Of a stretch of DNA of 64,000 nucleotides, positions 1,535-54,480 are shown piece by piece (position 1 is the first letter of the stretch; every line of letters starts with the position of its first letter). This stretch comes from an uncultured Verrucomicrobiae bacterium. Its GTDB lineage: Bacteria > Verrucomicrobiota > Verrucomicrobiia > Chthoniobacterales > UBA10450. The stretch lies in assembly GCA_963772365.1 (NCBI GenBank), contig CAVYXA010000003.1:480001-544000 (forward strand), given 5' to 3'. The notes beneath the pieces are model-generated. The model saw nothing but the letters and a program-made list of their open reading frames with translations, ran no database searches and was not told the origin of the DNA. The position numbers were made by a program, and so were the translations under genes.

Positions 1535-1548
1535 AGACCGCCGCTACA
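1479..1548. repeat. GTAG-type REP-like inverted doublet (family A) spanning the selA/selB junction
   Basis: TGTAGCGGCGCTCTGTGAGCGCCGC ... GCGACGGTCATAGACCGCCGCTACA; related copies at 18347-18413 and 29884-29940. Confidence 0.85.
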
Positions 1549-2913: not shown

Positions 2914-3926
2914 TCTTGAGGCCGAGTGATCTGGCCGATGACTTTTCCGGCTTTAATGAGTGCCCGAACTTTCTTGAGCCGATCTGGTTTGACGCACAAT
3001 AGCAAGCCTCCGCTGGTTTGTGCGTCAGTGAGAAGAATGCGTTGGGCGATCGATGTTTTATTCCAATCGGTCACCTTGCTTGCGGCTTGCAGGTTGCCGC
3101 GGGTGCCGCCGGGGATGCAATCGCGGCGAATCAAGTCGAACACGTCGTTGTCGATCGCGGGAACTTCGCTGGCATAGATCTTCGCGCTCGTTTTGCTGGC
3201 TCGACACATTGAAGCGAGATGACCGAGAAGGCCGAAACCAGTGATATCGACAGCCGCGCGAACCAGTCCGCGCTCGGCCAGTTCTGCGCCGATTGAATTC
3301 ACTTGGGTCATTATTGTGATCGTTTTCTTCGCGAGCTGGCGAGAAGTCAGACTGCGTTTGATGCCGGTCGTGACGATTCCGGTGCCGAGAGGCTTTGTCA
3401 GCACGAGCAGATCGCCCGGACGCGCATTGGCATTGGTCATCATTTTCCGTGGATCGACAATTCCAGTAACGGCCAGTCCATAAATCGGCTCTGGATTTCG
3501 AATGGAATGACCGCCGATGATGGCGCAGCCGACTTCGGCAGCTTTTGCGAAACCGCCGCGCAGGATCGAAACGATCGTTTTCTCCGACACGAGATTTTTC
3601 GGGAATCCCATGATGTTAAGTGCGGTGAGCGGGCGACCGCCCATTGCAAACACATCCGAGAGCGCATTAGCGGCGGCGATTTGTCCGTAGGCGAATGGGT
3701 CGTCCACTATCGGCGTGAAAAAATCGACCGTCTGCACGAGCGCGCGATTTCGGTCCAGGCGATAAACGCCGGCATCGTCGAGCGTGCTCGAATTCACGGC
3801 GACGTTTCGGTTTTTCGAAAATGGGAGCTGACGCAAAACTTGCATCAGGGCCGATTGGCTCAGCTTAGAAGCTCAGCCAGCGCAGGATGAAAGCGCGGTG
3901 AGTTTACGGATTTGTTCGCGCGACAT
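2889..3926 (-). CDS. selD: Selenide, water dikinase, selenoprotein form (Sec18)
   Basis: AGGAGG RBS then MSREQIRKLTALSSCAG-UGA(3873-3875)-ASKLSQSALMQVL, continuing in frame into the 2889..3845 ORF; DDAGVY, TVDFFTPIVDDP, DITGFGLLGH, DAQTSGGLL motifs. Confidence 0.95.
3828..3848 (-). promoter_or_regulatory. Putative bacterial SECIS hairpin of selD
   Basis: CUGAUGCAA-GUU-UUGCGUCAG, 9-bp stem; loop begins 33 nt after the UGA. Confidence 0.75.
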
Positions 3927-11102: not shown

Positions 11103-11543
11103 TTACGAACTCTGATCGAGACGGGAAGGCGGAAGCGCAATCACCAATCCGGACAGCAGAAATGTGATCGCCGCAGAAAACAAACAGTAACGGCAATAGG
11201 CGTGCAGTAGAAATGCCTGGATGTAGAGAAACCAAAGCGTGGCGAGAAACATTGCGCCCACGGTGAGCGTGAGAAATGTCTTTGCACGGCGGTAACTAAA
11301 AGCGGCAAGCGTGGCAAAACTGAAGACAGAGAAATAGGCCAGCACGCCGAAAGCCGCTACCGGAATTCCCCCGACTCGCGAATAGCGGCTGCCCAACACT
11401 CGAAAACAATCCGGGGATCCGCCGCAGGAGAGAGTTTCGCCGGTGAGAGCCTGAACTGTGAGGGAAATCGCATCTGCCAAACCCGCCAGGGCAACGATTG
11501 CTGCCAGGACATAAAGCACAGTGCGAAATCGCGCGACGCTCAT
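11103..11543 (-). CDS. Vitamin K epoxide reductase (VKOR) family protein
   Basis: CGGSPDC loop cysteines, VLGSRYS, CRYC active site, four TM segments. Confidence 0.9.
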   Translation of the reverse strand: MSVARFRTVLYVLAAIVALAGLADAISLTVQALTGETLSCGGSPDCFRVLGSRYSRVGGIPVAAFGVLAYFSVFSFATLAAFSYRRAKTFLTLTVGAMFLATLWFLYIQAFLLHAYCRYCLFSAAITFLLSGLVIALPPSRLDQSS

Positions 11544-12211
11544 TTGCGTTCCGTTTTTTCCTTAATCGCTGCCTTGACCGTCTCGCGTAATCCTTCCGGA
11601 TTTCTCTTGGCAGCTTCGAGCTCGCGATTGTTCACAAAGAGAGTTGGCGTGCTTTTAATCCCGAGTTCGCGACCACGTTCCTGATCCGATTTTATCCGCT
11701 CCTTGGCCTGCTGCCCTTCCATATCTTTTTTGAATTGATCGAGATTCAGGCCGATGGTTCCGGCATAAGCGAGGAACAACTCCATTGGATCTGCAGCTTT
11801 GGTCCAAGTGTCCTGCTCGCGATACAACACATCGTGCATCTCCCAAAAGTGACCCTGGAGTCCAGCTGCTTCAGCTGCCAGCGCTGCTTCACGCGCGTGC
11901 TTGTGCATCTCGAGCGGGAAGTTTCGAAAAACCAGGCGAACGTTCGGCTTGTCCTCTTTTACAACCTCGTCAAGGAAAGGTGAAATCGATCCACAGGGCG
12001 GGCACTGGAAGTCGCCGAATTCTTCCAGGGTCACGGGCGCATCGGGATTACCTCGAAGGTGCATCGAGCCAGTATCGCCTTTGCCGGGCACGGCCTTGTC
12101 TTCTGGAACGGTGAGAAGATGCGGGCGCTTGCTCTGGTAGAGCATCGCTCCACCTCCGACTGCTGCGGCCGCCACGAGAATGATTATGACGAAAGGGATG
12201 TAACGCTTCAT
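11540..12211 (-). CDS. DsbA-family thiol-disulfide oxidoreductase
   Basis: EEFGDFQCPPC, FRNFPL, STPTLFVN; N-terminal anchor; likely start MKRY at 12211; ATGA-coupled to VKOR. Confidence 0.9.
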   Translation of the reverse strand: MKRYIPFVIIILVAAAAVGGGAMLYQSKRPHLLTVPEDKAVPGKGDTGSMHLRGNPDAPVTLEEFGDFQCPPCGSISPFLDEVVKEDKPNVRLVFRNFPLEMHKHAREAALAAEAAGLQGHFWEMHDVLYREQDTWTKAADPMELFLAYAGTIGLNLDQFKKDMEGQQAKERIKSDQERGRELGIKSTPTLFVNNRELEAAKRNPEGLRETVKAAIKEKTERK

Positions 12212-12342
12212 AGGCTCACGAGAGCCGAAAAGCTTCAGCGCAACTGCTGATTCGTCAAATCGATCCGTCATGGCCGCCGCGGGGGGTGAGCCCGGCGGCC
12301 ATTATAGAACCGTCGTTTTGCAGTCGCTGCTTGTGTTGAAAA

Positions 12343-15300
12343 TCACGGCAACCCCGTGCCGACTTTCGATTTGATGAGCGAAATATCCGAACTGTTAATA
12401 TTGCCATCAGCGGTGACGTCCTCGCGGAAGTTACCGATGGTGACTTGCTGGCCAGTTTGTCCTTTGGCCTGGCTGATGTCGCTGGAATTTACCGCGCCAT
12501 TGTTCGTGCTATCGCCGATGAGAAGGTCAAATCGGGCGGGGACATTGTTCAAGCTAGCATCTCCGTCGCTTCCGCCGATGTTGTCGTTGTGAACGGGCAC
12601 ACCGTTGAGCGTTACGATATGGCGTTGCGCGTTTGGCACACCGGTCAGGGTTACGCTGTATTGGTTCGTGTCCGGCCCCGGCCCGTGACTGGCGACGGTA
12701 CCGCCGTTGGTGATCATTACGTCTGATGCCTGTCCGGTGACGGTGAACTCAGTGCCAAACGTGTAGATGATCGTATATGCGCTGCCCTCAAGACGACATT
12801 CAATGTCTGCTGAGCCATCCGGTTTCAGAAGATCGACATCAAAGGGGCCTGAGTTGCCGTGAGCTTTTCGAGAAACGACATCGTCCAGCGGTAGTTCCAC
12901 TTCAATTTCCACTATGGCGACATTGCTGCTGGTGGCTCCATGGCTATCGGTCACGGTGAGTCGGGCCGCGAAATGGCCATTGCTCATATACGTGTGATCA
13001 ATGGCGGCACCTGCCTGAGTCACTGGTGGTGTGCCGTCACCAAAATCGAACGTATAAGAGGCAATTGAATCTCCGGGATCTGGATCGCTGGAGGCAGAGC
13101 CGTCAAAATGAATTGCCAAAGGTGGATCGCCCTGGGGCGGCGTCCCGGGAGGCGAACCCACGGGGTAGGCGCTGAGCGCCGCAATCGGCGGCGTGTTTTG
13201 AGCGCACGAATCATTGCCGACAACGCCGTACATTCCCGACGGCGCCAGGCTGTCCGGCATGTTGTCGGGCGTGAGTGCGCCGACCACGGGAACTTCAGCG
13301 CGCACGCGAAGAAGGAAGCCGGTTAGGTGATCTCCTATTCCAGGAGCGCCGATGACGCTTCGGGGTACGACGATGGTAATTGTTCCGTCAGCGCTAAATG
13401 CGCTCGCCGCGTCGGCATTTCCCAATACGGTATCTGGAGCGCCGTAAGCGCCGCCCGTACCACCCGTCGGGTTAAAGGTGCCATAGCGAAAGACCGGTGC
13501 TGCAGGGCTGCCGCCATCGACTAATCTGGTGCTCATGTCCACCCAATACCCGAGCCCGGTCCCTCCGTTAATCAGGAACTGGACGGGCCAACGCGTCTCG
13601 GACGGCGGAAGGCCGCCGACAAAGCTTTCGACCTTGATTGTGACCACTAATTTGTCCGGTGCGAAAGCGAACGGCTCGGCGATGGAAAGCTTCCGCAAAT
13701 CCCAACCATCATTCGTGTTTACACCAATCGGCACAACGATATCGCCCGATGGATCTGTCAAAATCGTTAGCCCGGGCAATAGGCAGGGTGTCTCACCGCT
13801 CGTTGCACTGCTGATCGGAAATTCGCCGCACGTGGCGCTTTCACCCACAGCATTTATCGCTGAAATCTTATAGAAATAGTCTGTGTCGGCGACTGTGGTT
13901 GTATCGTCGTAACTGGTTCTGCAGTCCGGGCAACCAGTGGTGATCGTTGCAATTGGTGCTCCGTATGTTCCCGGATCGGTGCGTCGGTAAACATTATAGC
14001 CTGTAAGCGCAGAGCCTCCATTGTCCGGCTGCGACCAAACAAGATGCACAATGTCGCCCGCAGTGCCGGTCACGCTTTCTACCCGAGGCGCACCCGGGGC
14101 GGTGGGATTGCAGATCAATGGATTTTCGGTGCAGTTGGCCTGCCCATCATATTGGCTCAACAAACGAGGTCCGCCCGATTGACGAATCACGGTGGACAAG
14201 GCGCTGCGTGATTCATTATAAGGAGGATCGTGAGCAGCAGCCGTTTGCGCTGTGCAGTTCGGCCCAACGCAACCATCAGCATAGGCTGCTAGGACTCGTC
14301 CTTCGCTGTCGATCTGAATATCATTAAAGTCGAGTAGATTCCGATCGCTCCCGCAGGTTGTGCCGCCGGTGCAGATGGAACCGACTTGGACTGGATCGCC
14401 GTTTGTCGCATCGACCAGAGTATAGGTTTGACCGCGATCAACCGTCGTCGCGATGTAAAAGTACCACACGCCTCTGAATGAATTAATATCCTGATAACCA
14501 CCCTGGCCGGACGTGCCCAGAAATCCAAAAGCTGCCCGGTCGCCATCGCCAGCGACTACCTCTGGGAAGATAGCGTCCTGAATTATGCCCTGGCTAACAT
14601 CGACATCGTGCCACGTATCGCCGTGATCGGTGGAAACAGCGATGTGCGGGTGATTGTCGCTGTTCTGATAACCCACATACAACGTATTGTCGGATCCAAT
14701 GCCTACTGATGGATCGGTGTCGCCAGCTCCGGCGGTGTAACCCCCTTCGTGAATCGTTTTGACCGTCCAGGTCAATCCATTGTCGGTAGAAACGGCAACG
14801 CTGGCACCGCCGTTGCAACTCTTGTTCGGTACATAGACGGTCCCATCGGGACCGACTTTAACGTGGCCATGCAGGCCGCCGCATTGCGAAAGATTCCACA
14901 TGGGAATGCCGGGCCCGAAAGTCAGCCCGCCATCATCACTACGCGCGGCGAAAGCAGTTCCGATATCCTGCGAAGCATAATAGATTTGGTGTGGATAGAG
15001 CGGATGGGGTGGCGGAGGAGGGAATGCCGCTTCATTGTACGGTCCGCCTCCTAGTGTTTGATGATCTACGCCGGCCGGCTGCCCGGATCCTTGCGATTGC
15101 GTCCACGGTTGAGTATTTCCATCGTCATCGGAATACGACGTGATGCTGGTGGCGCCGGCCAACTGCGACTGGAATACGCGACCCAAGCCCGCGCCGGATT
15201 CGCCCGGATATTGATGATCGACGAAGCCTATTGGATCAAGCGTCTCGATTCCTTCGCTAATGTTCGTCACATCCTCCCAGTTATTCTTGGCCGGCGAGGA

Positions 15301-16128
15301 GCAGTCATCGAAATTCACTCGGAACTCGTTCAGATTGGCCGTGAAAAATGCAACTCCACCGGTATTCAGGTTAATGTTGTTCATCGGTGGCATTCCCGGA
15401 GTCGGTGGATTAGGTCCGTTCTTGAGTGAGGGCACGTTCGGATTCCAATCGATCCCAATGGAAGGTTCGCCCGCACTGTCCGCGCCGGAAAGATTCACCG
15501 GATTCGGCGGATAATTCTCGTAGCGTTGCGGTGGCGCCGTGCCCGGAGGAGGTGCCGGCGTCGCATCTTCCAAGGTGACCGTAGCCGTGTAACTCTGACC
15601 CGCGGGAGCAAACGGTATCGTACGGATCGTATAAGCTGCCGATTGCGCGGGTAAGACGATTACTTCGGGATCGGCGGAGGAAGCCGATGTCGCGACCACA
15701 TTGGCTCCTTGAAGGATATAAACATCGAAGTCAGCTGTTGAAATGGGCCAGCTCACACTAACGCGAACTTCCTTCGTTGGATCCGGATCGGGGCCGCCGG
15801 ACATATCCACCGTGAGTGCAAAGTCGCTGCACGACATTGGTACGGTACATATCGGATCGCCTGCTTGCCCCGTTAGATTTGGAACAACAAATGGACCATC
15901 AGTGTAGCTCAGTGTGGGATTCCCCAGAGAAACCGTTCCGCTTGGAGGCATTGGCGCTTGGGGTCTTGCGGCTGGTTTGGCTAATTGAGGCTGCCGCGCT
16001 TTTCCGTCGGCCCGTTGCACACCAGCGAAACTGGCCACAGCCAGCAAAATGCCGGCCATACATAAGAGGCCTGCGGAAAGAACGCGTGAATTGAAGAAGG
16101 CGGATTGAGATGTGATCTTCTTTTGCAT
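12343..16128 (-). CDS. Large secreted BNR/sialidase-like propeller + FN3 + PKD + dockerin-like protein
   Basis: Asp-boxes (SDDGGLTF, STDNGLTW, STDHGDTW), FN3 (WSQPDNGGSALTGYNVYR), PKD (SYTFDFGDG), duplicated Ca-loop tail. Confidence 0.8.
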   Translation of the reverse strand: MQKKITSQSAFFNSRVLSAGLLCMAGILLAVASFAGVQRADGKARQPQLAKPAARPQAPMPPSGTVSLGNPTLSYTDGPFVVPNLTGQAGDPICTVPMSCSDFALTVDMSGGPDPDPTKEVRVSVSWPISTADFDVYILQGANVVATSASSADPEVIVLPAQSAAYTIRTIPFAPAGQSYTATVTLEDATPAPPPGTAPPQRYENYPPNPVNLSGADSAGEPSIGIDWNPNVPSLKNGPNPPTPGMPPMNNINLNTGGVAFFTANLNEFRVNFDDCSSPAKNNWEDVTNISEGIETLDPIGFVDHQYPGESGAGLGRVFQSQLAGATSITSYSDDDGNTQPWTQSQGSGQPAGVDHQTLGGGPYNEAAFPPPPPHPLYPHQIYYASQDIGTAFAARSDDGGLTFGPGIPMWNLSQCGGLHGHVKVGPDGTVYVPNKSCNGGASVAVSTDNGLTWTVKTIHEGGYTAGAGDTDPSVGIGSDNTLYVGYQNSDNHPHIAVSTDHGDTWHDVDVSQGIIQDAIFPEVVAGDGDRAAFGFLGTSGQGGYQDINSFRGVWYFYIATTVDRGQTYTLVDATNGDPVQVGSICTGGTTCGSDRNLLDFNDIQIDSEGRVLAAYADGCVGPNCTAQTAAAHDPPYNESRSALSTVIRQSGGPRLLSQYDGQANCTENPLICNPTAPGAPRVESVTGTAGDIVHLVWSQPDNGGSALTGYNVYRRTDPGTYGAPIATITTGCPDCRTSYDDTTTVADTDYFYKISAINAVGESATCGEFPISSATSGETPCLLPGLTILTDPSGDIVVPIGVNTNDGWDLRKLSIAEPFAFAPDKLVVTIKVESFVGGLPPSETRWPVQFLINGGTGLGYWVDMSTRLVDGGSPAAPVFRYGTFNPTGGTGGAYGAPDTVLGNADAASAFSADGTITIVVPRSVIGAPGIGDHLTGFLLRVRAEVPVVGALTPDNMPDSLAPSGMYGVVGNDSCAQNTPPIAALSAYPVGSPPGTPPQGDPPLAIHFDGSASSDPDPGDSIASYTFDFGDGTPPVTQAGAAIDHTYMSNGHFAARLTVTDSHGATSSNVAIVEIEVELPLDDVVSRKAHGNSGPFDVDLLKPDGSADIECRLEGSAYTIIYTFGTEFTVTGQASDVMITNGGTVASHGPGPDTNQYSVTLTGVPNAQRHIVTLNGVPVHNDNIGGSDGDASLNNVPARFDLLIGDSTNNGAVNSSDISQAKGQTGQQVTIGNFREDVTADGNINSSDISLIKSKVGTGLP

Positions 16129-16358
16129 AGTTTCTCCTAACAACATGCTGTTAATCGGACGGGCCTCGATTAAGGTCGTATCATTAGACGATTTTCTTTC
16201 CCGCGAGTAAAGCGCAAAACTGCTTAGGATTCAGAATTTACCGTCGGCCCTTTACGTAACGAAACCGGTGCAAGTTATTAGGTTCGTTGTCCGTCCGTTG
16301 ATTTGCGCCGCGCTGGATGCTACGTAGCCTCGGTCCGACGCCGGACCGGCATTTCGCC

Positions 16359-19118
16359 ATGAGTCAGAATTACAAGGACACGCTCAACCTGCCGCGCACG
16401 GAATTTCCGATGAAAGCGAATCTGCCTGCGCGTGAGCCGGAAATCCTGCGGATGTGGCACGAAACGCGTATTTACGAGCAGATCCAGAAATCGCGGCAAG
16501 ATCGACAATTATTCGTTCTGCACGATGGACCGCCTTTTGCCAATGGCGACGTTCACATGGGCACAGCCCTCAACAAGATCCTCAAGGACTTCGTGGTGAA
16601 ATCGCAAACCATGCTCGGAAAGAGGGCGCCGTATGTGCCGGGCTGGGACTGCCACGGATTGCCTATCGAATACAAGGTAGTAAAGGAATCCCGCGGGCTT
16701 TCGCCGCTGGAAGTACGGAAGCGCTCCGAAGCGTTTGCCCGCAAATATGTCGATATTCAGCGCGAGCAATTCAAGCGGCTTGGAGCGTTAGGAGATTGGG
16801 AGCATCCCTATCTCACTCTCGATCCAAAATACGAAGCCGAGATTCTGCGAGCGTTTGCTGTTTTTGTTGAGAAAGACCTCGTCTATCAATCGCTCAAGCC
16901 AGTTTTCTGGAGCACTGGCGCGCAGACTGCACTCGCCGAAGCCGAAGTAGAATATCAGGAGCGCGACGACGCTGCTGTTTACGTGGAATTTCCAATATCA
17001 AGCGGCGATTGGCGGGACAAAGCGAGCATCGCGATCTGGACGACGACGCCGTGGACTTTGCCTGCCAATCTCGCGATCGCTGTCGATCCGAAGGAGCTCT
17101 ACGTGATCCAAGAATTTTCGCGCGACGGAGTCACAAAGACGCTCCTTCTAGCTGACAAGCTCGTTCCGCAATTTTGCGCAAACACCGGTTTTGATCCGGT
17201 CGGTGAACCGAAGGCCTCTTTTCCCGGTAGCAAGATTGAGAACACCAAAACGCTTCATCCGTTTTTGGATCGCGAAGCAATCGTCCTGGCAGCGGGTTTC
17301 GTCACGATGGACACGGGCACCGGCGCCGTGCATGTCGCGCCAGGACATGGTGCGGATGATTATGCGTTGGGAAGCGCCAACAAATTGTCGATCTTATCAC
17401 CCGTCGACGATCATGGCCGGTTCAGCGACGAAGCGGGTCTGCCGAATCTTACCGGCAAATACGTTTTCGATGCCAACATCGACATCGTCCATTTGCTGAG
17501 GGAGCGCGGCAAGTTGTTAGGGGAGCAAAAGTTTCATCACTCCTATCCATATTGCTGGCGCTCAAAAACTCCGATCATCTTTCGCGCAGTCGAGCAATTC
17601 TTCATCCGCATCGACGAGCTGCGCGCCAGGGCACTCGAGGCCATTCATAAAGAAGTCACCTGGATTCCGGCTTGGGGAGAAAATCGAATCGCCGGTACGG
17701 TCGAGTCACGCCCCGATTGGGTGATTTCCCGGCAACGAAGCTGGGGTGTGCCGCTGCCCGTTTTTTATTCGCCGGATGGCAAAGCGATTGTCGATGCAAA
17801 AACAATCCGCAAGCTGGCCGATATAGTAAGCGAGCGGGGTTCGAACATCTGGTTCGAATTGAGCGACGCTGACCTGGCAAGGGAACTTGGGCTCCCGCCC
17901 GGCACGACCAAACGCAACGACACCATCGACGTTTGGATCGACAGCGGCGTTTCGCACAAGGCGGTTTGTGCGATTCACCCCGAACTGCGCGATCCGGCGG
18001 ACATGTACCTGGAAGCGACGGACCAACATCGCGGCTGGTTTCAATCCTCGCTGATGACCAGCATCGCGTTGAATGATCGCGCGCCCTATAAAATCTGCGT
18101 GACTCACGGGTTTGTTGTCGATCTTGACGGCAAGAAAATTTCCAAATCCGGAACTTACGATAAGCCGATGGATGCCGGGCATTTTGTTGGCCGACACGGG
18201 GCCGATTTGGTCCGGCTTTGGGCGAGCAGTATTAACTACACGGATGATGTTCCTTTTTCGGAAGAAATGTTCACCAGGCTCGGTGATACTTATCGCCGGA
18301 TTCGAAATACGTTACGGATTTTGCTAGGAAATCTCTTCGATTTTCCTGTAGCGCTCTATGAGCGTCGCCATTCGAGGGAAGAAAGTTTGCGACGGTCGCA
18401 GACCGCCGCTACAGAAGAGAAGGATTTCACGTTGGTGGATCGCTGGATTGTGGCGCGGTTAAATGAAGTGATTCGGGAATGTCGGGCGGCGTATGAAGCA
18501 TTCGAGTTTCACAAAGTCTATCACACGCTCAATCAGTTTTGCGCTGTGGATCTGAGCAGTCTTTACATCGATATCACCAAGGACCGTATGTATTGCGATG
18601 CGCCCTATTCACCACGGCGCCGCGCGACACAGTCAGTGATGAAAGAGGTCTTCGATACGCTGTGCAAATTGCTCGCGCCGGTTCTTGCATTTACGGCCGA
18701 GGAAGCCTGGCGGTATTCGGAGCCGCGGGGATCCATTCATCTTCAGGAGTTTCCTAAACCAAAAGAGACGGATGGCAAAGTAAGCAGCGACGTCGCAGAG
18801 TTATTGAAGCTACGCGGGATTATTGGTCAGGCGATCGAGCGAGCACGACAGGACAAATTGATCGGCAACGCTTTGGAGGCGGCGGTGAGTTTGACCTCCG
18901 ATTCAAAGGTAACGGCGAAGATCGACAAGCAGGAGCTGGAGGAATTCTTTATTCTGAGCGATCTCACGATTCAGCAGGGGAAAGAAGCGAGCGCTTCAGT
19001 CAGTAAAACCACTTACCGCAAATGCGTTCGTTGCTGGCGTCATCGGCCCGAAGTGGGTCAGAGCAAAGCGCAGCCGGAATTGTGCAATCGGTGCGAAAGC
19101 GTGATCGCTTTGCGATAG
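16359..19118 (+). CDS. ileS: Isoleucine--tRNA ligase (type 1)
   Basis: LHDGPPFANGDVHMGT, GWDCHGLP, KISKS, C-terminal CVRCW/CNRC zinc site. Confidence 0.97.
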   Translation: MSQNYKDTLNLPRTEFPMKANLPAREPEILRMWHETRIYEQIQKSRQDRQLFVLHDGPPFANGDVHMGTALNKILKDFVVKSQTMLGKRAPYVPGWDCHGLPIEYKVVKESRGLSPLEVRKRSEAFARKYVDIQREQFKRLGALGDWEHPYLTLDPKYEAEILRAFAVFVEKDLVYQSLKPVFWSTGAQTALAEAEVEYQERDDAAVYVEFPISSGDWRDKASIAIWTTTPWTLPANLAIAVDPKELYVIQEFSRDGVTKTLLLADKLVPQFCANTGFDPVGEPKASFPGSKIENTKTLHPFLDREAIVLAAGFVTMDTGTGAVHVAPGHGADDYALGSANKLSILSPVDDHGRFSDEAGLPNLTGKYVFDANIDIVHLLRERGKLLGEQKFHHSYPYCWRSKTPIIFRAVEQFFIRIDELRARALEAIHKEVTWIPAWGENRIAGTVESRPDWVISRQRSWGVPLPVFYSPDGKAIVDAKTIRKLADIVSERGSNIWFELSDADLARELGLPPGTTKRNDTIDVWIDSGVSHKAVCAIHPELRDPADMYLEATDQHRGWFQSSLMTSIALNDRAPYKICVTHGFVVDLDGKKISKSGTYDKPMDAGHFVGRHGADLVRLWASSINYTDDVPFSEEMFTRLGDTYRRIRNTLRILLGNLFDFPVALYERRHSREESLRRSQTAATEEKDFTLVDRWIVARLNEVIRECRAAYEAFEFHKVYHTLNQFCAVDLSSLYIDITKDRMYCDAPYSPRRRATQSVMKEVFDTLCKLLAPVLAFTAEEAWRYSEPRGSIHLQEFPKPKETDGKVSSDVAELLKLRGIIGQAIERARQDKLIGNALEAAVSLTSDSKVTAKIDKQELEEFFILSDLTIQQGKEASASVSKTTYRKCVRCWRHRPEVGQSKAQPELCNRCESVIALR
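18347..18413. repeat. REP-like doublet (family A) inserted in frame in ileS
   Basis: TGTAGCGCTCTATGAGCGTCGC ... GCGACGGTCGCAGACCGCCGCTACA; encodes VALYERRHSREESLRRSQTAAT. Confidence 0.85.
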
Positions 19119-19315
19119 GCAGATTTCACTCGGTCGTCGATCCTCGGTCGACTTGGGCAAAATAAAGGGATCCGGATCGCTGTTGCATCCTGCAGAAGTT
19201 CCGAGGGTCAATGCACGACGCGAAATAGGTATGATCGAGGAATCTCTTGCCATTTGTAAGCAGAATAATGAAAGGTGTCACCGGCCGGCTGAAGTGCTGA
19301 AGCTGCAGGGTCGAC

Positions 19316-19831
19316 ATGAGGTTCATCTTTTTTCTATCCATCCCGCTTTACGCGTTAGATCAATGGACAAAATATCTGGTAGTGCAAAACATCGATCCTC
19401 ATCAACCGCGCAACCTCATTCCGGATTTTTTCGAGCTTGTGCGTATCACGAACACCGGCGCGGCATTCGGATCCTTCAAGAACAATAACGCTTTCTTCAT
19501 CGCGATTTCCTGTATCGCGTTGATTTTCGTTCTGGTGCTTTTATTACGGCGCCGTGCACCGGATGCCTGGCGGGATATTTCCCTTGCGCTGTTGCTGGCT
19601 GGAATCCTCGGGAATCTGACCGATCGTCTCCTGCACGGTTACGTGATCGATTTCCTCCTGTTCGATTTACACATTCCGTATGCTCATCCTTGGCCGGCCT
19701 TCAATATCGCCGATTCCTGCATCACAATTGCAGTAGTCTTTTTTCTCGTACATTCCTTTCACCAGGCTAGATCTGGCGAAAAAAAGCAAGTTGCACATGC
19801 AAATCGGATGGAGTCGCAACATCCGGGGTGA
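19316..19831 (+). CDS. lspA: Signal peptidase II
   Basis: DQWTK, NTGAAFG, GNLTDRL, VIDF, FNIADS; follows ileS. Confidence 0.95.
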   Translation: MRFIFFLSIPLYALDQWTKYLVVQNIDPHQPRNLIPDFFELVRITNTGAAFGSFKNNNAFFIAISCIALIFVLVLLLRRRAPDAWRDISLALLLAGILGNLTDRLLHGYVIDFLLFDLHIPYAHPWPAFNIADSCITIAVVFFLVHSFHQARSGEKKQVAHANRMESQHPG

Positions 19832-19870
19832 ATGGCGCGAGCGTATTATTGCGGCATCCCGCTTATCGGC

Positions 19871-20517
19871 TCAGCCTGTCGCGGCAAGCGCAAGTAATTC
19901 GCGGACTTCTTCGTCACTCGTTTGCGAAAAATCCCGGTAGTACTGCCCCACCGCCCGGAAAAATTCTGGTGTAATAGCACAAACGATTTCATCGGCTTCC
20001 GCCTCGATCTCACGGCAAGTTTCGGGCGGTCCAACCGGGACGGCTACGACAATTTTTGCCGCGCCTGATTGACGCAATGCTTTAACCGCCGCGCGCATGG
20101 TTGCACCGGTGGCAAGGCCATCGTCAACAAGGATGATAATCGATCGCGCAATTGCGGTGGCGGTCGACCGGCCCGATAACTTTGCTCGCGCCGCTCCAGT
20201 TCGGCCTTTTCTCGCCTTGTCACCGATTCAATAATTTCGTCGGAGTGTGGCAATGCGCGAACGACATCTTCATTCAGAACGCGCACGCCACCCGAAGCAA
20301 TTGCACCCGCAGCCAATTCCTCGAAGCCGGGCACACCGAGCTTGCGAACGAGAAAAACATCGAGAGGCGCCTGCAAAGCCTTTGCTACTTCATATGCCAC
20401 CGGAACACCTCCGCGGGGCAATCCCAGCACAATGACGTCGTTGCGCCCCGCGTAGTCTTTTAGTTTTTCGGCCAGGAATCGCCCGGCCTCAGCTCGATCC
20501 GCAAAAGTTGCGTCCAT
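19871..20517 (-). CDS. Phosphoribosyltransferase family protein (frameshift near 20140)
   Basis: [18 protein letters not shown], then [12 protein letters not shown] and [17 protein letters not shown] in the other frame. Confidence 0.85.
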
Positions 20518-20593
20518 AAAATTCGCGCTTCGCTGAAAATTTCACCTGTTCGATGTGCAAACGCTCTTGGCACGCCAATCTCAATTCGATCGC

Positions 20594-22114
20594 TTATCCT
20601 TCCGGCGCCAATTCGGGGGATCCGACAACGCGAGTCGGAACGAGCCGTAGCGATGGCCCCGTCGTTTCCTCAGCCTCAGACGGACCCGCTTCGTGATACT
20701 CGGCGTCCCCGTTGACTTGCCAAAGGTCGTAAAGCCTGCTGTCGGCCAGAATGTTTTCCACACAGAGCATGGCGGTCATCATGGCGTGGTCTTGATTGTT
20801 ATATTTATGCATTCCGTTGCGACCAACCAGGTGCAAATTGGGATAGCGATCTTCCAGTTCCTGTCGAATTACCGCAATGTGACTAGCGTAGTCGTCATCG
20901 TAAACCGGGTAAGCTTTTTTCTGACGAACGACCGTCCCATCGACAATGTCACCCTTTTTGGCCAGGCCGATCTGCATCAATTCGCGCCTGGCAAGCTGGA
21001 TCAGCTCCTCATCGGTAGAATTCCAAAGGCCATCGTGCTCGAAACAGAAGTATTCCAATCCATAACAAGCCTTGCCGCTATCCGGCACCATTTCCGGCGA
21101 CCAGGAACGGAAATTTTGTATTCGCCCCACTTTAACCTTGGGATCGTGGATGTAGATCCAATTGTCGGAAAACATGTTTCGCTCTTTCAAGATGAGCATC
21201 ACCGTGAGGAAGTCGCGGTACTTCAAGCTTTCCGCAGCATGCCGGGTTCGATCACTTACCGAAGGCGTGAGGCCGCGCACGAGTGATCGAATCGGGGCGG
21301 AGGAAATTATATGCTCGGCTTCGATTCTACCGCTGCTGCCTTGTCGATCCTCGAATTCAACAGTCCAGGTGCGAGATTCTTCGCTGTAGGAACAATGCGT
21401 CACCTTGCGACTCATGTCGATCCTGCCGCCCAATGCCTTTATTTTTTTCGCGCAGGCTTCCCACATCATACCGGGGCCACGGCGGGGATAGCGGAACGAG
21501 TGGATCAAGGTTTTGATCACCTTGGAACGATCGCCGTTGTAACGTTGCGGCAGCAGCGCATTCTTGATCGCGCTTCCAAGAGATAAACCTTTTATCCGCT
21601 GCGCCGCCCAATCCGCGGAGATTTCTTTGCAGCTCATCCCCCAAACCTTTTCGGTGTAGCTCTTGAAGAAAATATCGAATAGGCGGCGGCCAAATTGATT
21701 ACTCACCCAGTCTTCGAAGTTGCGCGGCTCGCGGACCGGAACCAGACGCGCCTTCATCCAGGAAAAAATGCAAAGGCAGGATCGGAAAACACCAAGCTTG
21801 ATTAGCGCTTCGAAAGGTTTGAGCGGATAAGAAAAAAACTTCCCATTGTAAAAAATTCGCGACGAGCGCGGCCGCACCAGCATGTCATCAGGCAGAATCT
21901 CGGTCCAAAGATCCTCGACTGCCTTGGACTTGGAAAAGAACCGATGGCCGCCGATGTCGAAATGAAACCCCTTGTATGTGACGGTGCGCGAAATGCCGCC
22001 GACATAATGCGGATCGGCTTCCAAGATGACCGTGTCGATGCCGTTCTTCGAGAGGAGGTAACCCGCAGTCAACCCAGCGGGTCCGGCGCCGATGATAGCG
22101 ACATTCGTTTTCAT
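20594..22114 (-). CDS. FAD-dependent oxidoreductase (HemY/Glf-like, glycan-associated)
   Basis: [35 protein letters not shown]. Confidence 0.85.
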
Positions 22115-22118
22115 CGCC

Positions 22119-23339
22119 TTATGCAATCCAGTTGCCGCGGGTGAAATTCCAGAGATACCACCCTTGTAAGCTCAGCCCGGCAGCGCAGGCCAAAATGATG
22201 GCTAAAATTCCCAGAGCTCGAACGAAGGCCGGTGTCTGCTGAACCTGGCGCAACAAATTTAATACGCCCAGCACGATGAGGGCGTGGACGCAAAATTCGT
22301 AGCGCAGCATGCTTTCCATGTTCACGCACGCCACGCCGCTCACCGAAACGTAATAGATGACAGCAGCACAAAAATAGATGCCGGCGCGGGTCGGCCAGTT
22401 TGCGCGTTCATGGATCGCTGGAACGAACTCGCAGATAACGATGGGAACAAAAAGCAGCGCGCCCAGCGTCATCGACATTTGGCTTGTCTGCGTTGGGTTA
22501 TCGAGCGCCGGAATGAGCCAGTGGTAACTCGATGGCTTAAACACCGCTAGATAATCGGGCACGATCCCCCAACCGGCTGCTTGAGTCAGCATGTAAAGAT
22601 TCCAGTTTCCCCAGCGCAATTGGCAATAGGCGAAAAACGCGAGAGCGCCGCTTGTCGCGACAACCATCAGAGCCGCCGCTCGCACGTAAACGCGAAACCA
22701 CGTAGTGGGCTGGCGTAGTCCTTCCCATCCGTTAGCGACGATTGAGCGTACAAGCGGGAAAGCCGCACACGGAATTCCTACAATCCGAGTGGAGCACATG
22801 AGAATGCCGTGAATCGCGCCCAAGAATTTTGGGGTTCGACTATCTATGCTGGTCCAATAGATGAATCCCATCAAAGCCAAGAGAAAGAGCGATTCGGAAT
22901 AAGCAGCGATCAAAAAGAAAGCAGCCGGATGAGCAAGGATCGACAGTGCACCGAAAAATTGCAGTGAGGGTGAAACATTCCAGCGTTGGCAAAAGAGAAA
23001 GAAATAGCTCCAAAAACCCCAGGCAGCGATCTGGGCAGCGATGAGGAGCGCATTCGAGGTGGCGAGATGAAAGCCGTAGTGAAGCAGCGCGGCGATAGCT
23101 GGATAACCCGGAAAGAACGCGACATTTGAAACTTCCATTACCTTTTGATTGATCGGAGGCACCGGCGTGCCATAACCGCGATCGATGATGTTCATGAACC
23201 AGTAACTGTCATGTTGAACCAAAGTGGAATAACGATAGGAAAGCGGCCCTTCCGGCGCCAAAAGGAGAACGGCCGCCGCGATTTGGGCGAGGGTAAGAGA
23301 TAATCCCGCGAACAAAGAAAGGAATTGTGACCGGCTCAT
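22119..23339 (-). CDS. GT-C type membrane glycosyltransferase (PIG-V-like mannosyltransferase family)
   Basis: [30 protein letters not shown], many TM segments. Confidence 0.75.
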
Positions 23340-23502
23340 CACGGGATCAGGACAATCTCTGGAGAAGACCGAAACGTTTGACGTATGGCAAGTACTTCCG
23401 GGCAAAACAAAACGCGCGGTCAGAAACGGGCAATCTATTAAATCCATGGTCCCCTGGAGCAGGAATTTGACGGATCGAATCTCTGTTTATTCGCGAGCGC
23501 GA

Positions 23503-24954
23503 TTATGCAACTGCTTCGTTCTCCGTGCCCAGAAGTTCCCGGTAAACTTCTTCATATCGCCGGGCCGATGTCTCCCACGAAAATTGCTTCGACATCGCGC
23601 GCTTCATCAACTCCATCCACAGTTCCCGATTTTGAAAAGTTTCTCGGGCCCGTTTGATAGCGTCCCAAAAGGCCTCGGTCGAGTAATCGTAAAAAAGAAA
23701 CCCATATCCCGTCTCCAGAGTTGGATCATAATCGGCAATGATCTCATGGATGCCGCCGGTTGCCCTGGCCACGGGAAGCGCGCCGTAAGCGAGATTATAC
23801 ATTGCGCTGAGGCCGGCCGGTTCGACCCGCGACGGGATCAGGCTAATATCCATGCCGGCCTCGATTACATGCGCTGTTTTTTCGTCGTAGCTTTTTTGAT
23901 AGGCAAATTTCGTGGGAAATTTGCGGGCCGTGACGGCCAGAGCCGTTTCAAAGGCAGGGTCGCCTTCGCCCAGGATAATCAGCCGCACGTCGTCCGAAAG
24001 GAGTCGGTCGAGAAGCGGGACGAGGATTTCGAATCCTTTTTCCTTAACCACCCTTGTCACCATGCCAAAGACTGGTCCAATCGGATCAGGGGCCAGCCGC
24101 AATCCCCCTAACAAAGCCTGGCGAGAAATCTCTTTCCCCAAAAACGAATTCGAACCGTAATTGGCCGGCAGCAGTTTGTCTGTCTCTGGGTTCCATCGCT
24201 CGTAATCAGCGCCATGCAAAATGCCCAGCAGACGGTGCGCATTTTCCCGAATCACAACATCCAGACCGCATCCGCCGGCAGGCGTCTGGATCTCGCTTCG
24301 ATAATGCTCGCTCACGGTGGTGATTTTGTCGGCGTAGAGAATTCCTCCTTTGAGAAAATTGACCGCTCCGAAAAACTCGATGCCGCGCAAAGTGAAAAAC
24401 CGTTCGGGCAAATTTGTAAGCGAAAAGTCCAAACCCCAGAAACTGCCTTGCTCGGCCAGATGGTGAATGGTCAGAACCGTTTTGAACGGCAAACCATGCG
24501 CATGCACAAACACCGGGATCAGCGCGGCCGCCCAATCGTGCACATGCAAAATCTCGACCGCCGGGGATAATCGGCGCGCCAGCTCAATCACCGCTTTGCA
24601 AAAAAAGATGAAGCGCGCCGAATTATCTTCATAGGCCTGGCCGTGCTCTCCATAAATCCCCGGCCGATCGAAAAATTCATCGCAGCGAACAAAAAACAAT
24701 TGTACGTCATGGGGGCTGCGGCCTTCCAGATATTCGGCGACATAGGTTTTGTTGCCGACGCGAACATCGACAGTGACACCCGTGTCCTTCTCTTTGAACT
24801 GCGTGTCCTCGCGAATCTCCTTGTAAAATGGAAGGGCGACACTCACATCATGACCGCGCTCGCGTAAATTGTGCGGCAGCGCATCCATCACATCGATGAG
24901 CGCGCCCGCCCGCCGCATAGGCGGCCCTTCCGCACTAGCCATTAGGATTTTCAC
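23503..24954 (-). CDS. glgA: Glycogen synthase family (GT5) protein with divergent KTGG motif
   Basis: DNSARF, HVHDW, NFLKGGI, PSRVEPAGL; RAGAL in place of KTGGL. Confidence 0.8.
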   Translation of the reverse strand: MKILMASAEGPPMRRAGALIDVMDALPHNLRERGHDVSVALPFYKEIREDTQFKEKDTGVTVDVRVGNKTYVAEYLEGRSPHDVQLFFVRCDEFFDRPGIYGEHGQAYEDNSARFIFFCKAVIELARRLSPAVEILHVHDWAAALIPVFVHAHGLPFKTVLTIHHLAEQGSFWGLDFSLTNLPERFFTLRGIEFFGAVNFLKGGILYADKITTVSEHYRSEIQTPAGGCGLDVVIRENAHRLLGILHGADYERWNPETDKLLPANYGSNSFLGKEISRQALLGGLRLAPDPIGPVFGMVTRVVKEKGFEILVPLLDRLLSDDVRLIILGEGDPAFETALAVTARKFPTKFAYQKSYDEKTAHVIEAGMDISLIPSRVEPAGLSAMYNLAYGALPVARATGGIHEIIADYDPTLETGYGFLFYDYSTEAFWDAIKRARETFQNRELWMELMKRAMSKQFSWETSARRYEEVYRELLGTENEAVA

Positions 24955-25137
24955 AGAAAAAAGGCTCGGCTTTCACGCTGCGAGCATCAAGGCGAAACCT
25001 GCCGATAATTTTTAAGAAATTCCCTTGCAAAGTCGGTTGGAATCTGCTTTACACTACGCCGCTCGATCACGCCATGCGGTGGCTAACCATGTTCTTCCGC
25101 TGGCCATGTCGATCTTACCAAACACGCAATTAATCCC

Positions 25138-28100
25138 ATGAAAAAAACTTCTACTTCTATGTCTGGCGTCAGCAATGCCCGCGCGTTGCTGGCTTTTGTT
25201 CTTGTTTCTGCCGGCGCTCTGCTGGCGATTTTCAGTTTCGCGGGAATCTCATCGAAGCTGACTTCGACTGTTGATGAGCGTTTGCGCGATATGCCCGTTC
25301 CCGGCGGTCGCGTCGATGATTTGGAGCGAATGCAGATGGAATGGCATAACCGAGTGACCTATCCGACTGGCCATTTCAATCCTGAATGGATTCGGAACGC
25401 CGCCGCACAGGATTTCCAGATGGCGAGGCGCGTACCATCAGGCCTCAGGAGAACGAATTTCGGACTGGGCAAAAATGGGCCGCTGGCGGTAGAAGTGAAC
25501 GCCTTCACTGCGCTCGGGCCTCAGCCGGAACACATGACCGGCTGCCAGGGTTGCTTTGATTACGGCACAACTGAGGGACGCGTAAACACTGTCGCGATCG
25601 ATCCCACTACGACCACGAACGGCTCCATTGTCGCCTACGTCGGAACGGATGGTGGAGGGGTTTGGAAGACAACGAATTGCTGCGATGCCAGCACCACTTG
25701 GAGTGTTTTGACCGATGATGCAGCGGTAAGTACTACTTCCATCGACAGCGTCACCATCGATCCTAATAATCACAACACGATTTACGCTGGGACGGGCGAC
25801 CTCAACTTCGGTTCGTTTTCGTATGGCAGCCAGGGTATTCTGAAATCGATCAATGGCGGCGCGACTTGGAGCGTACTGGGCGCGGATGTTTTCGGCGCGG
25901 CCTATCCTGAACCGGCCGGCCAATTCCCGCAGTATCAAGCCGTGGGCAAGGTGCGCGTTGATCCGAATAACAGCAACAAAGTCGTGGCGGGAACAAAGAC
26001 GGGTCTCTACTTCTCCTACGACGGCGGCGTGAATTGGGCTGGTCCTTGCACGACTAACAGCTTTAATACGCAACGGCAGGACATCACCGGACTTGAGCTC
26101 ACCAATTTAGGCGGCGGTGTCACGCGCATTCTCGCTGCAGTGGGCACGCGCGGTTTTGCCACGAACGTACAATACGATTTGGGCAGCAATGGAGCGAACG
26201 GTCTCTACAAAGGAACGATGCCCGCCAGCGGTTGCCCGGTAGATTTCAGTCCCATCAGCGTCGATGGTAACGGATTCGTCTTTGGTACTCAGGTAGTCGG
26301 CAGCCCTTACACGACCGGCGCTGCGATGAATGGCGCGAGCGGCACGCCATACGGCGGACTCAATGTCGGCAATCAGCTTGGTCGGATGGAGATTGCGGTG
26401 GCGCCGAGTAACCCGGATTACATCTATGCTCAGGTTCAATCGATCGCTCAAAACAGCAATAGCGGTTGCGGCAATGCTAATGGCTGTCAGCTGGGCGTTT
26501 GGGTAACCACCGATGGCGGTACCTCCTGGAGTTTCCTCAATGGATCCGCCGGCGGCTCGCTTCGAAACTGCAACAATGGGCAGGGCGATTATCCACAGAA
26601 TTGGTACGACCAGGGAATCGCTGTCGATCCTAACAATCCAGACCGCCTCTTCGTCGATACATTCGATACCTGGCTGGCAGATCGGAATGGAATTTCATTC
26701 TACGATCTGACCTGCGGATATAGTGGCGGCCATGTCGTGCATGTGGACCAGCACGCGCTCGCCTTTGTGCAAGGTTCCTCCAGTATCCTGCTCAAAGGCA
26801 GTGATGGAGGAATCTTCTCCAGCCCAGACGCCGATACAGCGGTCATTGGCGTCGTAAGAAACACGTGGGTCAACATGGACACCGGGATAAACTCGATCGA
26901 GTTTTATTCCGGCGACATTAGCGGCGACTTCGCCACATCGGCAAATCCTTCTGCTGTCGGTGGCGCGCAGGATAATGGCCCAAGCTCGGCCACGTTCTCC
27001 GGCTTTCCCACTGGTCCCGTTCAATGGCAGGAAGGCTTGGGTGGTGATGGATTCTTCGCCCGTATCGACCCGGTCGGGACAGGTTCAAGTCTCCGGTTTT
27101 TCCAAGGCAACAACAGCGGTGGTCTGAGCCGATGCGTCAGTAATTGCACGTCCCCCGGAGCGAGCTGGACGAGCATTCGCCCTGGCTGGACCGGCGATAC
27201 ACAGTCGTTCATTCTGCCCTGGGATATTTTCCATGGCGGGATTGCTGGCGGCGATGATTGCGCACCGGCAGGTGTTCCCGGCGGGTGCGGGCATTTGATT
27301 GCTGGAACGACTCGGGTTTGGGAAACAATCCGAGCCACGGACGCAAGCGGTGTGAACTCGACCTGGTACATGACCAACAATCCCACGACACAAAACATGA
27401 CCAAGCAAACGCTGGGCAACCGTTCTCACATCAACCAGTTGAAGTATTCGCCGAAATACAGCAGCGTCGCGATGGTCGGCACGAACGACGCCAATGCCTG
27501 GATCGGTTTCAATCTCGGCACCGGGACGGCGAGTCAGGCCAACTGGGTCGACGTGACGGATGGGAACACCGTTCTGCCCAATCGGCCCGTGCTTAACGTC
27601 GCCCTCGATCCTACGGTTGCGGCGGCGAATGTGCCAGTCGGCTACGCGGCGGTGGGTGGCTTCAATGCGAATACGCCGACAATGCCCGGTCACGTCTTCC
27701 AAGTTACTTGCGGTGCGAATTGCGGCTCATTCACCTGGCTGGATAAAACCGGCAATCTGCCCGACATCCCGGTAGATTCCATTATCGTGAATCCGAATTT
27801 CCCGCAGCAGGTTTTCGCCGGCACGGACTTCGGACTCTATTTCACGGACGATATTACAGCGGCTTCGCCCACCTGGTACCGTTTCAACAACGGATTACCG
27901 AATACGATGATCTGGGACATGCAGATCGACCGGGGCAGCACCACGCTTTCGCTCTGGACCCGTGGTCGGGGCGCTTTCGCGTGGCCGCTCCCGATAGGGC
28001 TGATTCAAACGCTCCAGGTAAACAGCATTGCGTCGCGCAAAGTTCATGGCACGGCCGGCACGTTCGATATCGATCTTGGGCTTGATGGGAGTAACGCGAC

Positions 28101-28533
28101 TGAATGCCGCAATGGCGGAGCCAATGGCGATTACACGATGGTTTTCACCTTCGGCACGAACGTCGCGAGCGTTACGAGTGCGAGTGTCACCAGTGGCACA
28201 GGCACCATCAGCAGCCGCAACATCGGCGCGAACCCTCATGAATACATCGTCAATCTTACCGGCGTGACAAATCAACAGGAGATCACGGTAACTCTGAACA
28301 ATGTCCAGGACACTAACGGTAACTCGAGCGCCACTGTTCCGGGAATCATGAGAGTCCTGATCGGCGACACGAATAACAACGCCACCGTTAATTCTTCCGA
28401 TGTTAGCCAGACGAAAGGTCGAATTGGCATGGCTACGCCCACAACCTTCCGGTCAGATGTGAACGCCAACGGTACCATCAATTCGACGGATATTGCACAG
28501 GTCAAGGCGGAGGTCGGAACAGGCCTGCCATGA
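25138..28533 (+). CDS. Large secreted BNR/VPS10-like propeller protein with dockerin-like tail
   Basis: GRVNTVAIDP, GGVWKTT, SINGGATW, VHVDQHAL, AGTDFGLY, WTRGRG; same C-terminal module as 12343..16128. Confidence 0.8.
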   Translation: MKKTSTSMSGVSNARALLAFVLVSAGALLAIFSFAGISSKLTSTVDERLRDMPVPGGRVDDLERMQMEWHNRVTYPTGHFNPEWIRNAAAQDFQMARRVPSGLRRTNFGLGKNGPLAVEVNAFTALGPQPEHMTGCQGCFDYGTTEGRVNTVAIDPTTTTNGSIVAYVGTDGGGVWKTTNCCDASTTWSVLTDDAAVSTTSIDSVTIDPNNHNTIYAGTGDLNFGSFSYGSQGILKSINGGATWSVLGADVFGAAYPEPAGQFPQYQAVGKVRVDPNNSNKVVAGTKTGLYFSYDGGVNWAGPCTTNSFNTQRQDITGLELTNLGGGVTRILAAVGTRGFATNVQYDLGSNGANGLYKGTMPASGCPVDFSPISVDGNGFVFGTQVVGSPYTTGAAMNGASGTPYGGLNVGNQLGRMEIAVAPSNPDYIYAQVQSIAQNSNSGCGNANGCQLGVWVTTDGGTSWSFLNGSAGGSLRNCNNGQGDYPQNWYDQGIAVDPNNPDRLFVDTFDTWLADRNGISFYDLTCGYSGGHVVHVDQHALAFVQGSSSILLKGSDGGIFSSPDADTAVIGVVRNTWVNMDTGINSIEFYSGDISGDFATSANPSAVGGAQDNGPSSATFSGFPTGPVQWQEGLGGDGFFARIDPVGTGSSLRFFQGNNSGGLSRCVSNCTSPGASWTSIRPGWTGDTQSFILPWDIFHGGIAGGDDCAPAGVPGGCGHLIAGTTRVWETIRATDASGVNSTWYMTNNPTTQNMTKQTLGNRSHINQLKYSPKYSSVAMVGTNDANAWIGFNLGTGTASQANWVDVTDGNTVLPNRPVLNVALDPTVAAANVPVGYAAVGGFNANTPTMPGHVFQVTCGANCGSFTWLDKTGNLPDIPVDSIIVNPNFPQQVFAGTDFGLYFTDDITAASPTWYRFNNGLPNTMIWDMQIDRGSTTLSLWTRGRGAFAWPLPIGLIQTLQVNSIASRKVHGTAGTFDIDLGLDGSNATECRNGGANGDYTMVFTFGTNVASVTSASVTSGTGTISSRNIGANPHEYIVNLTGVTNQQEITVTLNNVQDTNGNSSATVPGIMRVLIGDTNNNATVNSSDVSQTKGRIGMATPTTFRSDVNANGTINSTDIAQVKAEVGTGLP

Positions 28534-40079: not shown

Positions 40080-44133
<4,054 letters not shown>

Positions 44134-50299: not shown

Positions 50300-51025
50300 A
50301 TGGCGAACTTCTTTCCGCGCTGGTGCAATTGGCTGCCATTCAAAATGGCGATCTGCGGCACTCTCCTTGTTTGCGCGTTGACCGGTGCAACCTGGTATTA
50401 CGCCACCGGCAAATACACGAAAGTTGGCTATCAGCCAATTCAGCCGGTGCCGTTTCCGCATGATATCCATGTCACGCAATTGGGAATGGATTGCCGGTAC
50501 TGTCACAGCTTTGTCGAAGTTACGGCTCAATCGAATATCCCAACTACGCAGACGTGTATGAACTGCCATTCGCAGGTGCAAAAGGACAACCCGAAGCTGG
50601 AGCCAGTGAGAGCGAGTTGGAAGAGCGGCCAACCGATCGAGTGGGTGCACATTCACCTGCCGCCGGATTACGTCTTCTACAACCACGCGGCCCACGTGAA
50701 TCGCGGGATCAGTTGTTTCAGCTGCCACGGACCAGTGAACCACATGCCGGTCGTGTATGACGCAAAGCCTTTCACGATGGCGTGGTGCTTGGATTGCCAT
50801 CGGCACCCGCAAAATTTCTTGCGGCCGCAGGAACAGGTTTTCAATCTGGATTGGAAACCGAGTGATGTGCAACCGGCCGATTTCGTGGCCAAATACGGAA
50901 ATCCAAGCGGTGTAACGGAAGATTGGAGTAAGAAAAAACATCTCACCCAGGAGGAGATTGGACGGACGCTGAAACAACGCTGGAACATTAAACCGCCGAC
51001 AAATTGCCAGGGGTGCCATCGATGA
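50300..51025 (+). CDS. actA: Alternative complex III pentahaem cytochrome c
   Basis: Five CxxCH motifs, QPVPFPH, N-terminal TM. Confidence 0.92.
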   Translation: MANFFPRWCNWLPFKMAICGTLLVCALTGATWYYATGKYTKVGYQPIQPVPFPHDIHVTQLGMDCRYCHSFVEVTAQSNIPTTQTCMNCHSQVQKDNPKLEPVRASWKSGQPIEWVHIHLPPDYVFYNHAAHVNRGISCFSCHGPVNHMPVVYDAKPFTMAWCLDCHRHPQNFLRPQEQVFNLDWKPSDVQPADFVAKYGNPSGVTEDWSKKKHLTQEEIGRTLKQRWNIKPPTNCQGCHR

Positions 51026-54351: not shown

Positions 54352-54377
54352 TGAAACTGTCGATCCTATTTCTTGCC

Positions 54378-54470
54378 TGTCATCCTGAGCGAAGCGAAGC
54401 GGAGTCGAAGGATCCCGTGGAAGTTAACTTAAGCGCTCACGACGGGATTCCTCGACTTCGCTCGGAATGA
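54378..54470. repeat. GTCAT-type REP/MITE-like long hairpin in the actB-actC spacer
   Basis: TGTCATCCTGAGCGAAG...GTCGAAGGATCCCGT / ACGGGATTCCTCGACTTCGCTCGGAATGA. Confidence 0.8.
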
Positions 54471-54480
54471 ATAGAACTTC

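Follow-up and report, generated by a model that had tools for sequence, protein, structure and literature searches.

An X-dockerin tail shared by many predicted secreted proteins of a Chthoniobacterales bacterium and its candidate PEP-CTERM cohesin-fold partner

OlpA and OlpC of Clostridium thermocellum and ScaE of Ruminococcus flavefaciens are receptors for dockerin-bearing proteins and are held by SLH or sortase anchors. Each joins one cohesin to an envelope-sorting tail (structures 3ul4, 4dh2 and 2zf9). In C. thermocellum CipA, an immunoglobulin (Ig)-like X module, which is a stabiliser or spacer, stands directly before the C-terminal dockerin (2b59, 3kcp and 5g5d; also 4wi0 and 4u3s), and such modules have a non-cellulosomal use in Clostridium perfringens (cohesins 2w1n and 2vo8, dockerin 2jnk). 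A cohesin-dockerin system for the display of peptidases, including M14, has been proposed within the Planctomycetes-Verrucomicrobia-Chlamydiae group as the “planctosome” hypothesis for freshwater Planctomycetes, and the consulted part of that paper (PMC6461901) gives it a hypothetical anchor of 2,210 amino acids (aa) with a lamin-tail domain and mentions no PEP-CTERM or X module. Here we describe an X-dockerin tail that ends two genes in a 64,000-nucleotide stretch (hereafter the window; contig CAVYXA010000003.1, positions 480,001 to 544,000) of an uncultured Verrucomicrobiae bacterium of the order Chthoniobacterales. We consider it probable, at roughly 0.7, that this tail is the plug for a cohesin-fold socket with a PEP-CTERM end, which would be anchored by exosortase and would hold unrelated secreted enzymes at the cell surface. 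By analogy, such a system would work like the anchoring by OlpA/OlpC or ScaE and not like a cellulosome.

Gene 2 (P0001) is a plus-strand open reading frame (ORF) at 25138-28533 encoding 1131 aa, and gene 1 (P0002) is a minus-strand ORF at 12343-16146 encoding 1267 aa. The first-pass annotation of the window had reported two proteins of >1100 aa with similar N-termini, divergent cores and a common tail of ~175 aa. Both proteins are real; gene 1, however, lies on the minus strand, the plus strand across its region being packed with stops, and starts at 16146, position 16128 being the second Met. BLASTP between the two proteins bears out the rest: the C-terminal ~175 aa match at 46% over 186 columns (E 3e-34), the N-terminal 37 aa match at 51% (E 8e-6), and between the cores there is no match below E 3.6. 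Both tails pass the cut-off of Pfam Dockerin_1 (PF00404), with 32.8 and 26.2 bits against 22.9. The tail of gene 1 consists of an Ig-like X module (12520..12894, minus strand) and the PF00404 dockerin (12361..12516, minus strand). In gene 2 the X module (28018..28356, plus strand) is all beta in the predicted structure (model residues 5-117), and the dockerin (28363..28512, plus strand) has two Ca-loop/helix repeats with Asp at positions 1 and 12, Ser/Ala-Ser/Thr at 10-11 and Lys at 17.

As judged by profile, the tail extends far beyond these two proteins, in support of the first-pass annotation. In the genome of the window (G000; 3.35 Mb, 90% complete), 46 of 18,034 ORFs match the tail profile and 34 contain the full-length tail. 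After four split pairs are joined and one half-dockerin remnant is removed (our own reading), about 41 tail genes are left, and PF00404 has 41 matches genome-wide. These genes encode mainly proteases, oxidases and propeller proteins. Among the 39 other tail ORFs scanned we found three subtilases, an M14 peptidase, an astacin, a multicopper oxidase and a phosphoesterase, together with BNR, kelch, FG-GAP and DUF5122 repeats, laminin-G and PATR domains. No glycoside hydrolase family was found by Pfam in the 41 tail-related ORFs scanned, where several cores are without a family match, and the absence of such families from the 39 other ORFs fits the non-cellulosomal character first assigned to the system. 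The tail lies within 5 residues of the protein end in 134 of 152 proteins; it is internal, N-terminal or in tandem in P0003, P0004, P0006 and P0094. P0003, P0005 and P0073 bear two or three X-dockerin tails one after another, and the N-terminal domain of P0073 looks cohesin-like by eye and yet is matched by neither profile. At one further locus (L021:7532-7984; G000:C4:65531-65986) a PemK/MazF-like ORF reads into the duplicated second half of an upstream dockerin, as if a toxin-antitoxin pair had been inserted and the tail end duplicated.

The model of the gene 2 tail has a predicted local distance difference test score (pLDDT) of 93.4, and its beta domain is followed by a helical part with helices behind both Ca loops. 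Searched against the PDB, the tail profile retrieves dockerins to E 1e-8, X-dockerin dyads included; its best sequence matches are type I dockerins, and its matches to the dyads extend weakly into the X part. Across 32 tails of the genome, Asp1 and Asp12 of both Ca loops are 100% conserved, Lys17 is found in 96%, and Asn at positions 3, 5 and 9 in 46-84%. A Ser/Thr pair at 10-11 with Lys at 17 is a type I-like pattern, and the symmetry of the Ca loops in type I dockerins permits dual-mode binding. These results support the predicted Ig-like plus dockerin fold that had been read from the sequence. In a structure search the nearest folds of the X module, in which the motif S-R-x-x-H...F-D...E-x-R is invariant, are CopC-like and S-layer Ig domains at middling Z of 7-8.4. 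No X-dockerin entry is among the best 50 matches of a wide structure search with the X module, a Foldseek search of the tail returned nothing at E 0.001 or better (5k39_B at E 1e-2), and an Atlas search with the X module gave low scores only, to Big_5/CopC clusters. In addition to this nearest fold, what sets the dyad apart from that of CipA is that it ends dozens of enzymes here and not one scaffoldin. At E 1e-30 or better the family numbers 2,235 representatives. It is found in 30 of the 201 genomes of the order and in 5 of 301 genomes of the phylum, four of those five in Chthoniobacterales, and the closest tails in named records are from Chthoniobacterales and Verrucomicrobiota metagenome-assembled genomes and one Phycisphaerae (10 loci). 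In a tail tree built by a quick method only, 17 tails of this genome form a clade of their own (support 94), which is suggestive of a local expansion.

We then looked for the partner. As had been noted at first, no cohesin is visible in the window: Pfam PF00963 matches none of the 38 window ORFs scanned, nor any ORF of the genome. Across the order, PF00963 cohesins are present in 6 of 201 genomes, 2 of the 6 being tail-positive, and a classical Pfam cohesin was rejected as the tail partner, with none in the genome and nothing found there by a profile built from four cohesins of the order. The Pfam cohesins of the two tail-positive genomes have a PEP-CTERM-type tail, and in G046 the gene follows a plain dockerin gene; genome G000 was therefore screened for PEP-CTERM-like ends. 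This screen yielded three paralogues of one ~155-aa domain with such ends, namely an intact candidate anchored cohesin of ~205 aa outside the window (G000:C3:96338-96955, minus strand) and two frameshifted ones (G000:C3:103471-104089 and G000:C5:204433-205106). The same domain occurs in a frameshifted fusion of cohesin, Pro/Thr linker and X-dockerin (G000:C1:1574766-1575868). The fusion is found in an intact frame elsewhere (P0114, its C-terminus cut short), and P0006 is a tail-cohesin-cargo-tail protein. A Pfam cohesin also stands at the C-terminus of a secretin-like protein of G061 (L039:2-1648), whose gene adjoins pilin-like genes.

The ~155-aa domain is predicted to have a sequence-divergent form of the cohesin jelly-roll fold that is not filed under PF00963. 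Its model has a pLDDT of 97.2, and ranks 1-18 among 48,161 chains are all cohesins (Z 9.5-13.3), the first non-cohesin having Z 9.5. The top two matches are the C. perfringens cohesins, 2w1n (Z 13.3, root-mean-square deviation 2.6, 132 aligned) and 2vo8 (Z 13.2), which according to their entry titles are domains of large glycoside hydrolases and not stand-alone sorted anchors as here; 3ul4, 4dh2 and 2zf9 score Z 12.1, 11.7 and 8.7. We found 216 homologues of the domain that are similar to it in length, and PEP-CTERM or hypothetical are the only annotations among the 120 matches listed. The socket gene encodes an N-terminal signal (by eye), the PEP motif, a transmembrane helix and a basic end; the tail is matched by PF07589 and lies above the cut-off of TIGR02595, and by profile the genome encodes four exosortases and four secretin matches. 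This is the same tripartite tail as in the PEP-CTERM/exosortase sorting outlined in the consulted part of PMC1569441. The known use of PEP-CTERM tags each protein, whereas here a single socket would carry the tag and display, by proxy, many enzymes that have none. Compared with OlpA/OlpC and ScaE, the anchor is of the PEP-CTERM/exosortase type in a diderm, the sequence escapes PF00963 and the cargo is non-cellulolytic. Compared with cellulosome producers, the profiles used turned up no multi-cohesin scaffoldin; in G000 the family profile finds only genes with a single cohesin, but this genome is 90% complete and other divergent cohesins would be outside the reach of the profile. The receptor, which had been called unknown, now has a strong candidate in this PEP-CTERM protein of predicted cohesin fold.

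The distribution of the socket family follows that of the tail. Both profiles were run on the same 201 genomes of the order, in which kinship and linkage inflate co-occurrence, and no p-value is attached to the counts. A single socket protein as query found 12 genomes, all tail-positive, and profile A3 found 23, of which 22 are tail-positive; the remaining match, in G116 (E 8.5e-4), is a spurious partial one in an unrelated frame and is gone with profile A6. With A6, the socket is present in 25 of 30 tail-positive and 0 of 171 tail-negative genomes, and six families are covered. All five tail-negative kin tested (the unpublished G173 among them and among the 171) have an exosortase and are without the socket family, so the family does not merely follow PEP-CTERM systems.

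The two genes are also paired on the chromosome. Among the 41 socket copies outside G000, 40 were examined, and 34 of these have a tail gene next to them on the same strand (the other 6 have none), 33 lying directly behind the tail gene and 1 in front, in 23 of 24 genomes. Among the genomes with a single tail match, 7 of 9 carry the tail as part of a socket pair. A broken socket copy stands beside a tail gene in G101, and the partner in G015 is without PEP-CTERM. Three tandem cargo-plus-socket cassettes, each with its own PEP-CTERM cohesin, are found in L149 (G157:C11:85000-104999). In G000 itself the anchored cohesins do not stand beside tail genes, none coming directly after one, and they would act in trans as shared sockets.

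The system could operate as follows. Sec export is likely for both cargo and socket, going by signal regions seen by eye and by hydropathy, and one of the four exosortases would process the socket and anchor it in the cell envelope. The dockerin, presumably folded with Ca, would bind the cohesin, the X module serving as stabiliser or spacer, and the cohesin-linker-X-dockerin fusion may be an adaptor or spacer. The partners would also cross the outer membrane, by a route to which the secretins that are present are not tied. In the sections consulted, Haft 2006 (PMC1569441) proposes that PEP-CTERM proteins are cleaved and targeted to or through the outer membrane, and PMC11980579 describes exosortases as appearing to leave their substrates anchored at the cell surface.

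Several observations weigh against this reading. On the side of the fold, 0 of 24 members of the socket family match PF00963, HHalign against five Pfam cohesins gives 1.3%, and the Atlas search of the socket returned a 0.89 lead only; a search of PDB sequences with the socket profile retrieved no cohesin. Profile misses are reported for real (ruminococcal) cohesins in the portion of PMC11557425 consulted. In this assembly the fusion and two of the three anchored copies carry frameshifts, probably errors of assembly, since the DNA ligase and COX1 genes of the window are likewise fragmented. On the side of the co-occurrence, kin are not independent, a linked cassette co-occurs through joint transfer, and two of the 28 rows of A6 derive from searches limited to tail-positive genomes. 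No socket was found by the family profile or PF00963 in the tail-bearing G180, G127 and G167, nor in the held-out G223, a 99% complete genome outside the order with one tail. In G084 (96% complete, 11 divergent tail matches) none was found by A4, A6 or PF00963, near its 11 tails (L102-L120) or around its two PEP-CTERM matches, and this genome is one in which a second family of sockets might be sought. Finally, the final location of PEP-CTERM proteins is a proposal in the consulted parts of PMC1569441 and PMC11980579.

These gaps bear on what else the tail could be. The five tail-bearing genomes without a detectable socket, one of them with 11 tails, would suit a tail that is a Ca-stabilised adhesion or spacer module and binds either a glycan or a protein other than the cohesin, whose gene would only travel alongside. 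We regard this as very unlikely, given that the socket family is absent from all 171 tail-negative genomes of the order, that the socket stands behind unrelated cargo genes again and again, as many as four times in one genome, and that dockerin and cohesin folds are textbook partners. A role as a secretion or targeting signal, like the type IX C-terminal domain, with the cohesin-fold protein as an escort and not a lasting anchor, would suit the nearly always terminal position, the invariant motif of the X module and the many cargos with few partners. It would not account for a full two-loop dockerin, for the internal, N-terminal and tandem copies, or for a partner that is a sorted envelope protein and no channel part; Por_Secre_tail/TIGR04183 have no Pfam or NCBIfam match on the tails in a search of which Por genes were not part. 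We hold this possibility to be equally improbable, and of the “docking or secretion system” first suggested, docking fits better and secretion less.

Plug and socket might also bind away from the outer surface, the processed cohesin being periplasmic or released into an exopolysaccharide matrix in which the enzymes are held. No export route is linked to the tail, and the secretins are merely present, which leaves this arrangement some room. The cargo (subtilases, astacin, M14, FG-GAP, kelch, and proteins of >1000 aa with PKD/FN3), on the other hand, looks extracellular by inference, and the apparent surface anchoring of exosortase substrates mentioned above points the same way, so we consider it improbable, if less so than the other two. 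A surface-anchored PEP-CTERM socket for the X-dockerin plug remains our preferred reading.

Turning to the rest of the two genes, gene 1 encodes a predicted secreted protein (12343..16146, minus strand) with a leader, an Asp-box/BNR region, FN3, PKD and the X-dockerin tail, and gene 2 one (25138..28533, plus strand) with a leader, an Asp-box core without family match and the tail. The leader of gene 1 (16009..16128, minus strand) has a basic stretch, an S-A-F-F-N-x-R motif and a hydrophobic helix, and that of gene 2 (25138..25257, plus strand) a degenerate form of the motif. The cores were described as propellers, and beta-propellers are likely from their motifs: 3 and 4 Asp-boxes in the two cores (four in a region of gene 1 at 14422..14976, minus strand) and a sub-threshold BNR_2 match in gene 1 speak for it, while the gene 2 core has no PDB sequence match and no family match. 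Gene 1 further has an FN3 (13837..14088, minus strand; Pfam E 3e-4, below cut-off, with titin FN3 matches in the PDB) and a PKD domain (12901..13146, minus strand; Pfam and PDB search).

A general role as second component of the system had been proposed for the leader. It is found in 10 ORFs of the genome: 8 belong to tail genes, of which 5 are intact and 3 split, and 2 to genes that lack the tail. This 8-of-10 enrichment is partly built in by a profile seeded mostly from tail genes. It is thus present on 8 of the 41 tail genes, as well as on 5 of 150 outside tail proteins, many being fragments, and named relatives have it on several of their tail genes. An obligate role was accordingly rejected, and by its sequence distribution the leader is a subfamily signal region and not a required partner of the tail. 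The two tail-less genes are G000:C1:1381282-1383417 and C1:903298-904374 (both minus strand); the former ends, by eye, in FG-GAP-like repeats, possibly an alternative C-terminal module.

Among the neighbours, genes for a DsbA-like thioredoxin and a VKOR (11103-12271, minus strand) lie on the same strand 72 bp downstream of gene 1 and could serve disulphide formation in Cys-rich cargo. SelA adjoins an AIRS-family gene, likely SelD (1531-3845, minus strand), as selenocysteine machinery. A row of iron-sulphur, NrfD, cytochrome c and COX1 genes (51004-62403, plus strand) likely encodes alternative complex III together with a terminal oxidase. The NAD-dependent DNA ligase (40080-42368, minus strand) is in at least 4 ORFs and COX1 (59099-60018, plus strand) in at least 2.

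We found no description of a PEP-CTERM cohesin with a dockerin partner in a literature search that most subscription papers lay outside, and nothing relevant on dockerins in Chthoniobacterales. An archaea review treats exosortase and cohesin separately in the sections consulted, and the arrangement in the consulted part of a giant-gene preprint (10.1101/2023.11.21.568195) differs from the tail-socket system; of published ideas, the planctosome comes closest. New here are a missed socket family of predicted cohesin fold, its tight co-occurrence with a single X-dockerin family, the ratio of many tails to few sockets and the putative adaptor fusions. A candidate partner is thereby supplied for a large orphan dockerin family, “no cohesin in genome” can be a profile miss, and one class of PEP-CTERM proteins gains a testable job. 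As a new cohesin-dockerin pair in which both halves are small single modules, the system could also serve designer enzyme complexes. Related verrucomicrobia are reported to be abundant in soil. Tentatively, and with considerably less confidence, we suggest that a two-gene plug-socket cassette became a genome-wide “sorting by proxy” in Chthoniobacterales, a diderm soil lineage, with a few anchored cohesins, dozens of interchangeable X-dockerin enzymes, and cohesin-X-dockerin fusions that might chain onto one another to build extended surface complexes, cellulosome-like in form but proteolytic and oxidative. Plug and socket would offer a diderm a way of retaining dozens of secreted enzymes on its surface with no need to tag them singly.

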